Source of the DNA: Escherichia coli
Lineage (GTDB): Bacteria; Pseudomonadota; Gammaproteobacteria; Enterobacterales; Enterobacteriaceae
Assembly: GCF_003334335.1 (NCBI RefSeq)
Contig: NZ_QOWQ01000073.1
Length of the DNA: 7,140 bases
Reading direction: 5' to 3' (one strand)
The translations under genes and the position numbers were made by a program. Below, one piece after another: positions 1,761 through 5,788 of this stretch (within the stretch, counting starts at the first letter, position 1; the number at the start of each line of letters is the position of its first letter). The notes under the pieces were generated by a model that made no database searches, was not told where the DNA came from, and was given only the letters and a program-made list of their open reading frames with translations.

Positions 1761-3251
1761 TTATAAGCCAAAGGATTGCTCATGCCATCTTATCAGTTTC
1801 TGGCTGTAGCACGCATTCAGTTCAGGCAGCGTGATATTGTTTATTTCGGAAAGCAGGACATAGGTGGTTTTTCCTTCCTGCACGACAGAGAGCCTGAGTT
1901 GAGATGCAAGAATGTTCAGCAGGACGTTCAGCTTTTTCCTGTTCCGGAACCGGCCCGGGCCACACTGGAGAATATAATTTTTCCTGACACGGGGCGGGCA
2001 TTCTCCGCGGCACTCCTCAATGAGCCAGTCGAGCAGCTCCCGGGCGTCCTGCAGCTGCAGTTCAGATTCGTCAGGTAACGCAAATAATTTTTTATATTCA
2101 TCTGTGTACCACGAACTTATTACGACAGCAGACGTCATGATATCGGCAGAGATTTTCCCTTCACCCTGACTGAAATACTGCAATAACGCAGCAATTCTCG
2201 CAATGTTTTCTGTTTTTTTTGAAACATGCCCCCGAAACTGGCTTAAGGGTCCGGAAGGAGACAAATCCTGCTCCAGAACATTATAGTGATCAATAAATAT
2301 TTTTTGCGCTTCAGGAGAAAAATGCAGACAATAACGTTCATCCTTACTGGATTTTTCAATACTGCCTCTGGCCAGTTCCATTAATCGTTCATGAAATGCC
2401 GTTAATGATCCTCCCGGGGTCACAGCTCCGTTAATAAAGCGTTTCCCCTGCGTGGTGGCAGGTTTACTGATTAGACAACGGGCAAGAAAACCACTGTCCC
2501 TGGCAACAGAACCTTTTCGCTCCATATATCGGTCAAAAAGACCGGGTTGTACCATGAGGGATAATGTCATTCTAGCATTTTCAATCATCTGTTCGGGTTC
2601 ATTCTTTCTGTCCACCGACAATACGGAGCCATCCCACATTTTGTTAATAAAAGGCAGCTCAGACAGGGTATACCCATCAAATATTATACCGGCTTCATCA
2701 GACATGATACCCACTGAACGCCACTGACCACAAAGCTGATCTTTAATTGCTGCTGTCGTGGCATCATTAAAAATGAATTTATATCTTACAGGTTTTTCCC
2801 CTCTGTTTTTCTGAAGCGCTTCCAGTTGTCTGAGCGTTTCTGACTCATCCGCGCCTTTGCGGAGTTCTTTATTCAGTTTTGACAACAATGCTTTTTTCTG
2901 CGCCTTTAAAAGCTCTTCCTTATTTTTCCATATCGTCAGTTCATTTTTGTGTCTGGAATATAACAGCATCTCCTGCTGGTACAGGGGCTCCATTAATAAT
3001 TTGTCCACTGCGGTTTTTCGTTCTCCGGACTCAGCAAGCGTCAGTAAGAAAAGAGAAACCGGCCCCCGCAGTGTATTCAGTCTGCAGACATCAATCAGAT
3101 TCTGGCAGACAAGTGAAACAGCGCCCAGGGCAGATGCTGCCACAAGCCCCAGGGGAGCCTGCGTGATTTGCTGAGCTTCAATAACGGCATCACGAATGAG
3201 TGGAGGCAGCGAGCTCAGGGGAAACTCATCAGGATACTGAAAGTATGGCAT
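1761..3251 (-). CDS. YfjI-like DUF3987-domain protein (mobile-element associated, possibly replication-related), 496 aa
   Basis: Minus-strand ORF 1761..3269. I start it at the ATG at 3251 (MPYFQYPDEF...) because a GAGGT Shine-Dalgarno sits 5 nt upstream on the minus strand. The N-terminal region (FPLSSLPPLIRDAVIEAQQITQAPLGLVAASALGAVSLVCQNLIDV) resembles DUF3987/YfjI proteins as I recall them. The many short ORFs overlapping it are antisense or alternate-frame artefacts. Confidence 0.8.
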   Translation of the reverse strand: MPYFQYPDEFPLSSLPPLIRDAVIEAQQITQAPLGLVAASALGAVSLVCQNLIDVCRLNTLRGPVSLFLLTLAESGERKTAVDKLLMEPLYQQEMLLYSRHKNELTIWKNKEELLKAQKKALLSKLNKELRKGADESETLRQLEALQKNRGEKPVRYKFIFNDATTAAIKDQLCGQWRSVGIMSDEAGIIFDGYTLSELPFINKMWDGSVLSVDRKNEPEQMIENARMTLSLMVQPGLFDRYMERKGSVARDSGFLARCLISKPATTQGKRFINGAVTPGGSLTAFHERLMELARGSIEKSSKDERYCLHFSPEAQKIFIDHYNVLEQDLSPSGPLSQFRGHVSKKTENIARIAALLQYFSQGEGKISADIMTSAVVISSWYTDEYKKLFALPDESELQLQDARELLDWLIEECRGECPPRVRKNYILQCGPGRFRNRKKLNVLLNILASQLRLSVVQEGKTTYVLLSEINNITLPELNACYSQKLIRWHEQSFGL

Positions 3252-4084
3252 AATGACCTCACAACACACAGAACATAAAGTACCGCAACTATTGCTACTA
3301 ATAGCAAAAATAGCAGCAGAATCAATACAGGATAAAAATTTCTGTCGATTTTCAGATTAAATAATAACCATTCGGTATTTTGTCGCTAAAGAATGTTAGA
3401 ATGAATCTGTGCGTCTACGGGCGCTCTCCGGAACACACATGTTGATTAATTTTCACACAACAACGTACCAGCAAAAAGCATCATCCAGGGTATTGCAGGT
3501 ACGGGTTTCCTGCCGGGAATAAACATAAACAGTTTCCCCGGAGTAACGCTTTCAGAAAACTGCCCTCCTGAAGAAGAATAAAATAAAGAAGATGACAGTT
3601 CCTGCACTGAATGCTGAGTACAATATTCTATGGACAGGATGACATTTTTATAAATAACAAAAACCATTTAATACTGATACATCAATAAAATACTTCCTCC
3701 CTGCTGACACAGATAAAATGCAACATTTTTTCTTCAAATACTTCTGTATAATCGCCAGCCAATGATGAGAATGGATTAAAATAACACTTCTTCGACAAAC
3801 ACAAAAACCAGCCTTCATTTTCACATCATCATCCAGTTTTAATTAAACCCTGACGAGCGACAGTATTTCAGTTCAGGAATTAAAAGCCAGCTATTACTCA
3901 GTAAAAACACCACCAACTAATAATATCTCAGCAGATATTTCCTGACCAGGATGACACATTTATTAAAGATTTTTAACAGGACACTTCACATTACTGAACG
4001 CTATTCCGACAGTATCACTACACAAATAAAAAAGGGAACTGGATAAATATTCATGCCGGAAGAATGGTGTAACAAAAGCATTTA

Positions 4085-4221
4085 ATCATTACGTGCGTAT
4101 TCCTCTCTATTCGATCACGGTTTGGCCAAACCGTGATCGATTCAGATGCCATTTTGCAAGTACGCATGACCCGGAAGGGAAACACTTAACAACATGGTAT
4201 CAACAGATATCATTACGTGCG
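4085..4221. repeat. 13-bp perfect direct repeat ATCATTACGTGCG (4085-4097 and 4209-4221) bracketing the 30-bp palindrome
   Basis: Read directly. Both copies are identical over 13 bp with similar T/C-rich tails (TATTCCTCTCTAT vs CACTCTTAT). They are 124 bp apart. Confidence 0.85.
4111..4140. repeat. 30-bp perfect palindrome TCGATCACGGTTTGGCCAAACCGTGATCGA with two symmetric GATC sites (candidate operator or RNA hairpin)
   Basis: The sequence equals its own reverse complement over exactly 30 bp (checked base by base); it does not extend, since 4110 and 4141 are T and T. GATC at 4113-4116 and 4135-4138 are the only GATC sites in the 3270-4540 spacer. Confidence 0.9.
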
Positions 4222-4357
4222 CACTCTTATAAAAATACACAGCAGAAGCAAGATAACTCTAAACGTAAATTTAATATCTCCCACTGACTGCCCCGACAAT
4301 ATACTGAAAAATACTCACCTCAGTAAACATAAACACACCTGATAATCAGGCTGCAAG

Positions 4358-4441
4358 ATGAATATTTTTCTCCTTTACGGAGTAATCAGCCTGCTGTTTA
4401 ACAATAACCGCGTATTTTCATGGAAGGATATCACCCAATAA
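4358..4441 (+). CDS. Candidate small ORF, 27 aa (MNIFLLYGVISLLFNNNRVFSWKDITQ); possible leader peptide or small hydrophobic protein
   Basis: ATG at 4358 to TAA at 4439-4441, verified codon by codon. Hydrophobic N-terminal half. A weak AGG lies 7 nt upstream and a 13-bp palindrome CCTGATAATCAGG (4338-4350) sits just before the start. A terminator-like hairpin follows about 85 nt downstream. The ORF is too short for statistical support. Confidence 0.15.
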   Translation: MNIFLLYGVISLLFNNNRVFSWKDITQ

Positions 4442-4527
4442 CGGATAACTCCTGCCCTCCTTCATGTTAATACGCAACATCCCCATCGATTCCAAACAAT
4501 TTCAGACAGATATTATCTCCGTGAATC

Positions 4528-4566
4528 CCCCGCCACCTTTCCGGTGTGCGGGGTTTTGTCTTTTTT
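4528..4566 (+). terminator. Intrinsic (rho-independent) terminator-like hairpin plus U-tract, immediately upstream of the GTPase start codon
   Basis: GC-rich stem 4528-4537 (CCCCGCCACC) pairing with 4543-4553 (GGTGTGCGGGG) with one bulged T and a 5-nt loop TTTCC, followed by TTTTGTCTTTTTT (4554-4566). The GTPase ATG is at 4583. Confidence 0.6.
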
Positions 4567-4582
4567 CACCGGGAATACATGT

Positions 4583-5455
4583 ATGAATCCGTCTGATGCC
4601 ATTGAGGCAATTGAAAAACCACTTTCTTCCCTGCCTTACTCGCTTTCCCGTCACATCCTGGAACATCTGCGCAAACTCACCAGTCACGAACCCGTGATTG
4701 GCATTATGGGTAAAAGCGGGGCCGGTAAATCCTCACTCTGTAATGCACTGTTTCAGGGGGAGGTCACCCCGGTCAGTGATGTTCACGCCGGCACCCGGGA
4801 AGTGCGGCGCTTCCGTCTGAGTGGCCACGGTCACAGCATGGTTATCACTGACCTGCCCGGGGTGGGCGAGAGCCGGGACAGGGATGCAGAGTATGAAGCC
4901 CTGTACCGTGACATTCTGCCTGAACTGGACCTGGTGCTGTGGCTGATTAAAGCCGATGACCGGGCCCTGTCTGTGGATGAGTATTTCTGGCGACACATCC
5001 TGCAGTGCGGACATCAGCAGGTGCTGTTTGTGGTGACACAGGCCGACAAAACGGAGCCCTGCCATGAATGGGATATGGCCGGCATTCAGCCCTCTCCCGC
5101 ACAGGCACAGAACATTCGCGAAAAAACGGAGGCGGTATTCCGTCTGTTCCGGCCTGTACATCCGGTTGTGGCCGTATCGGCCCGCACCGGCTGGGAACTG
5201 GATACGCTGGTCAGTGCGCTCATGACAGCGCTTCCCGACCATGCCGCCAGTCCCCTGATGACCCGCCTGCAGGACGAGCTGCGCACGGAATCTGTCCGCG
5301 CTCAGGCCCGTGAGCAGTTTACCGGTGCGGTGGACCGGATATTTGACACAGCGGAGAGCGTCTGTGTTGCCTCTGTTGCACGCACGGTTCTGCGTGCCGT
5401 CCGTGACACAGTGGTCTCTGTTGCCCGCGCGGTATGGAACTGGATCTTCTTCTGA
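4583..5455 (+). CDS. yeeP: YeeP/YfjP/YkfA-family GTPase of cryptic prophages/islands (ribosome-binding GTPase-like), 290 aa, apparently intact
   Basis: ORF 4544..5455. Start set at ATG 4583 (MNPSDAIEAIEKPL...) with a weak GGGAA 7 nt upstream; GTG 4544 is an alternative. P-loop GKSGAGKSS (G1), DLPGVGE (G3, DxxG) and TQADK (G4-like) are present. Its position directly upstream of the Ag43 gene matches the yeeP-flu arrangement in E. coli K-12 as I recall it. Confidence 0.85.
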   Translation: MNPSDAIEAIEKPLSSLPYSLSRHILEHLRKLTSHEPVIGIMGKSGAGKSSLCNALFQGEVTPVSDVHAGTREVRRFRLSGHGHSMVITDLPGVGESRDRDAEYEALYRDILPELDLVLWLIKADDRALSVDEYFWRHILQCGHQQVLFVVTQADKTEPCHEWDMAGIQPSPAQAQNIREKTEAVFRLFRPVHPVVAVSARTGWELDTLVSALMTALPDHAASPLMTRLQDELRTESVRAQAREQFTGAVDRIFDTAESVCVASVARTVLRAVRDTVVSVARAVWNWIFF

Positions 5456-5555: not shown

Positions 5556-5560
5556 AAAAC

Positions 5561-5596
5561 GATCGATACCTATTTTATCGATCGTTAATATCGATC
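5561..5596. promoter_or_regulatory. Ag43 phase-variation switch: three clustered Dam GATC sites (5561-5564, 5580-5583, 5593-5596) within the presumed OxyR binding region
   Basis: Sequence CGATCGATACCTATTTTATCGATCGTTAATATCGATCGTT read directly, about 190-230 bp upstream of the Ag43 start codon. Three GATC sites inside the OxyR operator are the established hallmark of the agn43 Dam/OxyR epigenetic ON/OFF switch. Confidence 0.8.
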
Positions 5597-5760
5597 GTTA
5601 TGCTAATAATAACTCCTGTTAGCAACGTGCACAGATACACACAGACATGAGATTCAGGGAACAACAGAGCCACACGTCAGAAACTTCCGTCAGCCGGACC
5701 TCCGGCACTGTAACCCTTTACCTGCCGGTATCCACATCTGTGGATACCGGCTTTTTTATT
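5562..5760 (+). ncRNA. isrC: agn43 5' leader / IsrC-like small RNA (promoter-proximal transcript ending at the leader terminator)
   Basis: Inferred: a transcript starting near 5562 from the candidate promoter would end at the strong terminator at 5724-5760, giving a product of about 200 nt. In E. coli K-12 the sRNA IsrC is annotated between yeeP and flu, as I recall. The ends are not determined from sequence. Confidence 0.4.
5724..5760 (+). terminator. Intrinsic terminator in the agn43 leader (12-bp perfect stem, 4-nt loop, T-run)
   Basis: GCCGGTATCCAC (5724-5735) pairs perfectly with GTGGATACCGGC (5740-5751), loop ATCT, followed by TTTTTTATT (5752-5760). It lies 29 nt upstream of the Ag43 ATG. 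Confidence 0.75.
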
Positions 5761-5788
5761 CACCCTCACTCTGATTAAGGAAATGCTG

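Follow-up and report, generated by a model that had tools for sequence, protein, structure and literature searches.

An AT-rich spacer beside a conserved GTPase promoter-leader in a CP4-like island of Escherichia coli: probable low-constraint filler in a cargo slot

The window studied here, i.e., the whole analyzed stretch of 7,140 nucleotides (nt) from the Escherichia coli contig NZ_QOWQ01000073.1, belongs to an integrative island of the CP4-like type, and its sequence matches that of strain G1/2 at 100% and that of the CFT073 pheV island at 99.6% identity. Our subject is the gap of 1331 nt (positions 3252–4582, GC content 0.38) that lies between two divergent genes of this island, yfjI and a gene for a YeeP/YfjP/YkfA-type GTPase. 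With moderate confidence, we explain it as a composite intergenic region, in which a gene-less, AT-rich filler under low constraint (3252–4488) would occupy a cargo slot and would act, if at all, through its composition, and in which control sequences would be located at the ends, with a conserved GTPase module on the right. The bulk of the gap does not code, is rich in A+T and keeps its composition, and its sequence shows no detectable constraint. Its readings as a non-coding RNA or as a source of peptides are not supported, and recognisable pseudogene remnants are excluded.

The gene to the left, yfjI, encodes a 496-aa protein of the YfjI family with a DUF3987 domain (E = 2.4e-94) and occupies positions 3251..1761 of the minus strand with an ATG at 3251; the gene to the right encodes a GTPase of 290 aa with an MMR_HSR1 domain and occupies 4583–5455 of the plus strand with an ATG at 4583. 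Both starts were taken over from the RefSeq annotation of records that are 99.6–100% identical. A preliminary description of this DNA had singled out 3270–4540 as a 1.3-kb AT-rich stretch without convincing open reading frames (ORFs) between the divergent DUF3987 and GTPase genes. This stretch is real and falls within 3252–4582, and the sharp contrast in composition ascribed to it was confirmed (GC 0.378 in 3270–4540 versus 0.459 in yfjI and 0.588 in the GTPase gene). The bulk 3252–4488 (1237 nt) has a GC content of 0.377, compared with 0.49 in the whole window and 0.59 in the GTPase gene. Its plus strand contains A, C, G and T in proportions of 0.36, 0.22, 0.15 and 0.26, respectively, and this A+C versus G+T asymmetry of the strands is maintained in four lineages.

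The spacer was matched in 2800 of the 5426 complete E. coli genomes and was covered by at least 80% in 1813 of them (about a third); in six inspected loci it was flanked by the same two genes. No annotated feature lay beneath the match in any RefSeq record inspected. Outside Escherichia the spacer was found neither in 31 loci with GTPase relatives from about a dozen other genera, which were collected by a contig scan with the GTPase and served as the comparison set, nor in a scan of viral contigs with YfjI, nor by BLAST against phages and plasmids, which gave matches to two small repeats only. In the literature, no paper matched the exact spacer sequence strings, and searches with the CFT073 locus tags and for yeeP and H-NS were uninformative.

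The low constraint on the bulk is seen from the alignment of four lineages, represented by the window and the loci L004, L003/L005 and L039. The divergence (K) of 3252–4488 from the window was 0.134 in L003 and 0.295 in L039 (0.13–0.30 across comparisons), versus 4-fold-site K of 0.159 and 0.220 in yfjI and, in the GTPase gene, of 0.149 and 0.120, respectively, a comparison that is rough since the spacer is a recombination mosaic. The breakpoints of the mosaic lie near 3560–3600, mosaic structure was also noted at 3836–3935, and the flanking genes group otherwise; the segment 3601–3900 is 97% identical to L003 and only 75% identical to L039. The bulk alignments contain 112–181 gap columns, and the spacer indels between lineages have lengths of 1, 2, 3, 5, 6, 7, 29, 71 and 73 nt and break reading frames. 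Nothing in these alignments suggests purifying selection on the bulk. As to the absence of conservation across related islands, which the preliminary description had proposed to check, the bulk is essentially unconserved, and conservation beyond Escherichia is limited to the final ~94 nt of the gap.

The 29-nt indel (3942–3970, present in the window and L004, absent from L003 and L005) takes out half of the second copy of a 32-nt direct repeat located at 3623–3654 and 3935–3966, the two copies being 75% identical. Positions 4091–4161 are occupied by an inserted palindromic repeat of 71 nt resembling miniature inverted-repeat transposable elements (MITEs), which contains a perfect 30-nt palindrome (4111–4140), has TACG at both junctions and is absent from L003, L005 and L039. 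We revealed this repeat in 6400 places in 2668 E. coli genomes, with a maximum of 50 per genome, and, without the spacer, on more than 100 plasmids of Escherichia, Salmonella and Klebsiella (other places include L006 3001–3078 and L052 2501–2535). Its half-copies adjoin transposase fragments of several families of insertion sequences (IS), and no parent IS of the element was identified. Finally, a 73-nt hairpin element at 4406–4478 (arms 4410–4422 and 4463–4475) is absent from L039. In phages P-EibA and P-EibC, a stem_loop annotated next to the autotransporter gene eaaC resembles it at 80–82% (compare L051 1501–1559); in E. coli the element was found mostly inside copies of the same spacer. 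Insertions of IS66 and IS21, truncation and a further deletion of 111 nt are tolerated in the spacer of other genomes. We observed IS66 (ISEc8), IS21 and IS421 inserted in the spacer or in the GTPase gene of different strains (L038 2596–4908; L055 5868–7837; L005 5440–6552), and in the O157-type 'cah' configuration ISEc8 stands in place of yfjI and of the spacer's left half.

The right end of the gap, 4489–4582 (94 nt), behaves differently from its bulk: it is 75–96% identical across genera, where the GTPase proteins themselves are only about 60% identical. This end contains a predicted promoter consisting of TTCCAA (4490–4495) and TATTAT (4511–4516) separated by 15 nt (4490..4516, plus strand), with 3/6 and 5/6 matches to the consensus hexamers; our promoter scan, which requires a spacer of 16–18 nt, gave no call here. 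The box is conserved in at least 12 genera. A 20-mer covering most of it, AATTTCAGAYAGATATYATC (4498–4517), is conserved letter for letter, at a constant distance from the start codon. The exact motif was found upstream of the GTPase gene in 21 loci, including a dozen records from other genera, and is present once in the window, with 0 occurrences expected by chance. In K-12 its counterpart upstream of yfjP is TTGAAA-15-TATCAT, which is the promoter assigned to the RpoD-holoenzyme SELEX (systematic evolution of ligands by exponential enrichment) sites at ykfA and yfjP (Shimada et al., PMC3946193).

Transcription from this promoter is inferred to start at ~4523, and the predicted 5' leader of the GTPase mRNA extends over 4517..4582 of the plus strand. 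It contains a GC-rich hairpin (4528–4553) with a 10-bp stem, followed by a U-run (4554–4566) of the sequence UUUUGUCUUUUUU; the terminator scan matched at 4528–4566. The terminator noticed in the preliminary description exists as a terminator-like element, but it is part of the predicted GTPase promoter and leader and not of an RNA gene in the spacer. A hairpin was present at this position in all 19 leaders compared, its stem sequence differing between clades, and a U-run followed it in 17 of them. Three further yfjP-type leaders showed the same hairpin and U-run by reading, two of them also having been run through RNAfold. Alignment by MAFFT and RNAalifold gave no consensus for the leaders because their hairpins differ in length. 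In addition, the 5' segment of the leader, CUCCGUGAA (4517–4525), can pair with UUCACCGGG (4565–4573), which overlaps the Shine-Dalgarno sequence GGGAA (4571–4575). The energy of this duplex beats that of shuffled sequences in about 12–14 of the 19 leaders, the pairing is absent in 4–5, and a switch of the pair GUGAA/UUCAC to CUGAA/UUCAG was observed between clades. These features are suggestive of a leader structure that sequesters the Shine-Dalgarno sequence.

At the left end, the segment 3252..3560 (minus strand) co-segregates with the yfjI haplotype: the window and L004 share one variant and L003 and L039 the other, tracking the yfjI alleles. The segment includes an invariant block, TAATAGCAAAAATAGCAG, at 3298–3315. 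Judging from reading its sequence, the promoter and 5' untranslated region of yfjI are presumably located in it; the promoter scan gave no call there.

Since the loci of other genera hold variable cargo at the same position, we consider that the spacer occupies a cargo slot. The 31 loci of the comparison set share no more of the gap than its last ~94 nt; they lack the remainder of the spacer as well as YfjI. Elsewhere, the slot contains a type III methyltransferase, Gabija GajB or a GajA-GajB pair, a VPA1262/PDC-S05-like protein, a 1652-aa NERD-helicase protein or, in K-12, RnlAB together with AbpAB (examples of cargo upstream of the GTPase start are found in L007, L009, L012, L059, L060 and L040). 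The preliminary description had placed rnlAB upstream of yfjP in CP4-57 of K-12, and the pair is indeed present there. The scan of viral contigs with YfjI revealed loci of the CP4-57 type, all of them without the spacer. The slot upstream of the conserved GTPase promoter looks like a hotspot for defence cargo.

The commonest occupant of the slot is a single fast-evolving, AT-rich gene of 294–401 aa without family assignment. It was found at L011 4925–5872, L013 4999–5913, L016 4917–5897, L022 4715–5842, L023 4690–5892, L017 4987–5913, L025 4829–5914 and L062 1368–2402. In eleven loci an AlpA homologue (65–80% identity) is located 1.4–1.9 kb upstream in divergent orientation, with that one AT-rich gene between. 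The AT-rich hypothetical proteins had no match in Pfam, NCBIfam or PADLOC, and may represent an uncharacterised partner or defence gene. As a side observation, these proteins are 20–32% identical to each other, and in many genera their gene has an alpA homologue, in divergent orientation, on one side and the GTPase gene on the other.

The existence of this positional gene raises the question of whether yfjI and the GTPase gene were once separated by one or more protein-coding cargo genes, of which the spacer would be the decayed, now functionless remnant. An AT-rich gene of 294–401 aa with a GC content of 0.34–0.40 fills this position in at least 10 loci of other genera and stops some 85 nt short of the GTPase start, the spacer with its 1.24 kb is of similar size, and evolution at a neutral rate with indels and insertions is what is expected of a dead gene. 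However, translated searches brought no support. A word-indexed search with the six-frame translation of the spacer against 5.8 billion protein clusters gave 0 matches. Exhaustive HMMER searches of 1.84 billion representatives with all open spacer segments of at least 28 aa matched only short proteins of 29–146 aa (53–100% identity); two of these were traced to contigs and proved to be ORF calls on copies of the same spacer, and one further protein matched the spacer segment that crosses the inserted repeat. Translated similarity did not extend to anything longer than the spacer's own spurious ORFs. In tblastn, all upstream ORFs of the 31 other-genus loci gave nothing above shuffled sequence when compared with the spacer, and profile hidden Markov models (HMMs) built from the positional gene families gave the spacer scores no higher than those of shuffled sequence. 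Stop codons are not depleted in any frame (their numbers per frame are within ~2 standard deviations of shuffles in the four lineages), and residual 3-base periodicity is absent, with a signal of 0.5–1.9 and one borderline value of 2.5 in the spacer against 2–6 in the flanking genes. Moreover, C exceeds G on the plus strand of the spacer (C/G 1.45), whereas G exceeds C in the positional genes (C/G 0.70–0.92).

Thus, of the decayed gene envisaged in the preliminary description, a recognisable remnant was rejected by the translated searches, the stops and the periodicity; the frameshifted remnants of known genes for which it had advised to look were not found by translated searches, tblastn or profile HMMs. 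A remnant too old to be recognised is compatible with these results, and the filler may be the eroded remainder of an earlier cargo. As a full account of the spacer, a decayed and functionless gene seems to us possible but doubtful.

The spacer ORFs themselves are short, the longest comprising 73 aa (minus strand), 64 aa (plus strand, crossing the inserted repeat) and 58 aa (minus strand). One could suppose that the spacer encodes a small protein, such as a toxin-like or membrane peptide, and the best candidate would be a strongly hydrophobic ORF of 36 aa (3325..3215, minus strand) that overlaps the yfjI start codon out of frame; several ORFs of 30–73 aa are available in all. But, as read from the alignment, the L003 lineage has a TGA in frame after the TTG start of the hydrophobic ORF, so that this ORF is probably a by-product of the T-rich strand; the T-rich minus strand yields hydrophobic codons from its composition alone. 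The small ORFs (73, 64, 58, 36 and 31 aa) are disrupted in other lineages by indels, insertions or stops or else cross inserted repeats, and neither the six-frame nor the HMMER searches revealed a match to a protein family. With no ORF kept across lineages and no family match, the small-peptide module suggested in the preliminary description finds no support, and among the explanations considered here we rate a small-protein gene as the least credible.

Another proposal is that the spacer is a non-coding RNA, either a long structured one or a set of small RNAs (sRNAs), forming an RNA-based defence or regulatory module in place of protein cargo. Several facts speak in its favour, namely that the slot holds defence genes elsewhere, that the spacer is very widespread and keeps its length across lineages, that its strand-asymmetric composition is conserved, and that moderate folding z-scores of -2 to -3 were obtained at 3401–3560, 3801–3960 and 4281–4520 (minus strand). 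Against this, a cmscan of the whole window with Rfam at E <= 1 revealed only IS102/IsrC at 5559–5764 and nothing in 3252–4582. Most folding z-scores are between -1 and +1, that is, most windows are no stabler than shuffles; the sole strong value (z = -4) belongs to the segment of the inserted palindrome, and in the spacer core the minimum free energy per 160 nt is weak, at -13 to -20 kcal/mol, on the plus strand, whose RNA would be almost structureless. Promoter-like sites are not in excess (4 in the spacer versus 4.1 +/- 2.2 in shuffles), nor do terminator-like sites outnumber those of shuffles, and no unit of promoter plus terminator delimits an sRNA of 50–300 nt, the only good terminator being the GTPase leader hairpin. 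Furthermore, the spacer changes at or above the rate of the neutral proxy and with many indels, lacks detected homologues outside Escherichia, and the published sRNAs of uropathogenic and K1 E. coli (PapR, C271 and sRNA-17) map elsewhere. Two sets of candidates were examined and rejected: sRNA-17 of E. coli K1, which came from a screen of intergenic regions longer than 1 kb, lies in the mEp460 prophage and is unrelated in sequence, and the oligos of UTI89 PapR and C271 are absent from the window.

These data fail to bear out the discrete RNA module proposed in the preliminary description, the Rfam scan recommended there having given nothing within the spacer, and we regard a non-coding RNA as improbable. 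The structured elements listed in the same description (palindrome, direct repeats, terminator, TATAAT and hydrophobic ORF) are all present, but they differ in weight. In particular, the TATAAT hexamer at 3747–3752 (plus strand) has no -35 partner, is CATAAT in L039 and received no call in the promoter scan; direct repeats are represented by weak two-copy pairs only, and no tandem repeats, iterons or repeat arrays of the ToxI-like or CRISPR-like kind were found in the spacer.

The lack of iterons and tandem repeats also bears on the possibility that the spacer is a cis-acting site for maintenance of the island, i.e., a replication origin, an origin of transfer (oriT) or a partition site, served by the adjacent DUF3987/YfjI protein. 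DUF3987 proteins occur in replication modules of phages and satellites, and an AT-rich region with palindromes adjoining such a gene would fit this role. However, the palindromes sit in insertions that are missing from other lineages, the sequence is not conserved, YfjI homologues with 51–52% identity are found in elements of the CP4-57 type that have no such spacer, and in the O157-type configuration an IS66 element replaces yfjI together with the left half of the spacer. A maintenance site therefore appears to us very improbable.

Another feature shared between the window and the other genera is the presence of an AlpA-family gene near the GTPase gene: the two are linked in the window and no more than 6 kb apart in 15 of the 31 other loci. 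In Pseudomonas, AlpA binds in the interval separating -35 from -10 and carries the polymerase through a leader terminator (PMC7969949). By analogy, the linked AlpA-family gene is a candidate regulator of the GTPase gene, which we offer as a hypothesis. It can be extended to a more far-reaching scheme, in which 4489–4582 would be an undescribed control cassette of YeeP/YfjP/YkfA GTPases acting across genera and the spacer an emptied or eroded defence hotspot kept as an H-NS/Rho insulator. In such a cassette the AlpA-family protein of the island would bind the invariant spacer between -35 and -10 and cause the polymerase to read through the leader terminator, in the manner of Q or Pseudomonas AlpA, and the 5' end of the leader would additionally mask the ribosome-binding site. 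We consider this complete scheme rather unlikely and advance it only tentatively.

We return to the composite intergenic region as the preferred explanation. If the bulk has an effect, it is likely compositional rather than sequence-specific. DNA longer than 1 kb with 62% A+T is a usual substrate for coating by H-NS/Hha, and untranslated, unstructured RNA rich in C and poor in G is a classic substrate for loading of Rho. We defined windows of 80 nt as similar to Rho utilization (rut) sites if C was at least 1.5 times G and G was at most 15%; 48 of 115 windows were of this kind on the plus strand RNA versus 1 of 115 on the minus strand RNA. The plus strand RNA thus has the sequence properties of a rut site (untranslated, unstructured, C > G), and the spacer has the A+T content of xenogeneic DNA silenced by H-NS. 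On composition, therefore, the spacer is probably an H-NS/Rho substrate, and the silenced regulatory locus considered in the preliminary description is plausible on composition alone.

In the composite arrangement, the filler, with a length of about 1.1–1.2 kb, would have gathered small hairpin insertions and indels over time. Its DNA would be coated by H-NS/Hha, the island having its own Hha paralogue, and rightward transcripts would go untranslated and be terminated first by Rho and then at the leader hairpin. Owing to this coating and Rho loading, the spacer would silence and insulate both divergent genes. Sequence-specific function would be confined to the ends, i.e., to a short yfjI-proximal segment on the left, assigned by reading, and to the 94-nt module on the right, for which it is partly documented. 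The latter would comprise a sigma-70 promoter with a 15-nt spacer, a leader of ~60 nt and a hairpin with a U-run that attenuates transcription; with the 5' end of the leader sequestering the ribosome-binding site, the whole module would hold the GTPase at a low basal level.

As an observation on the neighbourhood of the window, a paralogue of hha (Hha/YmoA family) and a gene annotated as 'inovirus Gp2 family' are located on the island a few kb upstream of alpA (L001 2400–2624, L004 426–650, L039 1097–1309). In some strains the island hha is a pseudogene or is broken by an IS3 element.

Several points weigh against the composite explanation. The marked A+C/G+T asymmetry of the strands is not explained by it. 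The length of the spacer is similar, about 1.15–1.34 kb, in lineages separated by K of ~0.3, and ~1800–1900 genomes carry it. The deletion bias of bacteria is expected to shrink truly useless DNA; since the length was nevertheless kept across deep lineages and the spacer spread widely, some selection for its retention is possible. Together, the constant length and the strand asymmetry leave some room for an undetected function. The high-affinity H-NS motif is not enriched, with 7 TCGATAAATT-like sites in the whole window versus 5.95 +/- 2.59, and the mosaicism described above leaves the rate comparison rough. For the leader, the covariance model alignment gave pair counts no better than shuffles and no formal support for covariation, and the model recovered the close clade only; likewise, neither the yfjP nor the ykfA leader has a 3' end entered in the Term-seq tables for K-12 (PMC7815308).

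The spacer contains neither a missed gene nor a known RNA and may therefore stay annotated as intergenic. The spacer itself is ordinary; the useful results are the conserved GTPase promoter-leader and the cargo slot that it borders. The YeeP/YfjP/YkfA GTPases, with at least 3360 homologues in the YeeP family, are not known to have a particular function. Their module, with a weak promoter, a leader terminator and a masked ribosome-binding site, appears to be built for tight repression, and the conserved promoter-leader, often linked to AlpA, provides an experimental handle on when these GTPases switch on. In addition, the module is a signpost for the downstream border of a variable slot accommodating Gabija, restriction-modification, RnlAB and AT-rich unknowns, and it could serve for the mining of defence candidates.

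As for the remaining features of the window, the AlpA-family helix-turn-helix gene (Pfam Phage_AlpA) is located at 776–982 and a hypothetical gene encoding 190 aa at 1068–1640, both on the plus strand. Downstream of the GTPase gene, IsrC sRNA (Rfam IS102, RF00124) was identified at 5559–5764 of the plus strand as a full-length match of 255 bits. The window ends in the start of antigen 43. As in CP4-44 of K-12, IsrC sits after the GTPase gene and before antigen 43.

Comparison with known systems puts these parts in perspective. The IsrC (IS102) locus of CP4-44 is a known sRNA of the same island family on the opposite side of the GTPase gene, but it lies outside 3270–4540 and its sequence is unrelated to the spacer; it exemplifies what a true RNA gene looks like here, with a strong Rfam match and a terminator of its own. 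The 71-nt element resembles MITEs and repetitive extragenic palindromic (REP)-like repeats in being short, palindromic, multi-copy, polymorphic in presence and found on both plasmids and chromosomes, and it differs from clear MITEs in that its terminal inverted repeats and target-site duplication are uncertain, the terminal symmetry being weak and only TACG being shared at the junctions. The GTPase module recalls the AlpA cassette of Pseudomonas, as it has an invariant spacer between -35 and -10 across genera and a terminator-like leader hairpin. However, the hairpin of Pseudomonas alpB is positioned 54 nt after the start and that of the GTPase leader only about 5 nt after the predicted start, and the conserved promoter spacer (AATTTCAGAYAGA) is unrelated to the Pseudomonas element GGGACGN5GGTA.

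With island DNA silenced by H-NS/Hha the spacer has in common that it is a non-coding tract of more than 1 kb with 62% A+T in a mobile island carrying an hha paralogue; as in xenogeneic silencing, its composition is kept without conservation of sequence, and RNA from its plus strand would lack structure and be rich in C and poor in G. So strong an A+C/G+T asymmetry of the strands is not standard for H-NS targets, and their high-affinity motif is not enriched in the window. Finally, the slot differs from the variable defence or cargo hotspots of integrative elements and phage satellites in containing no gene here, but instead non-coding DNA without detectable relation to the cargos found elsewhere. 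It resembles such hotspots, for example those of the P4 type or the rnlAB/abpAB region of CP4-57, in that the cargo upstream of a conserved GTPase promoter varies by host.

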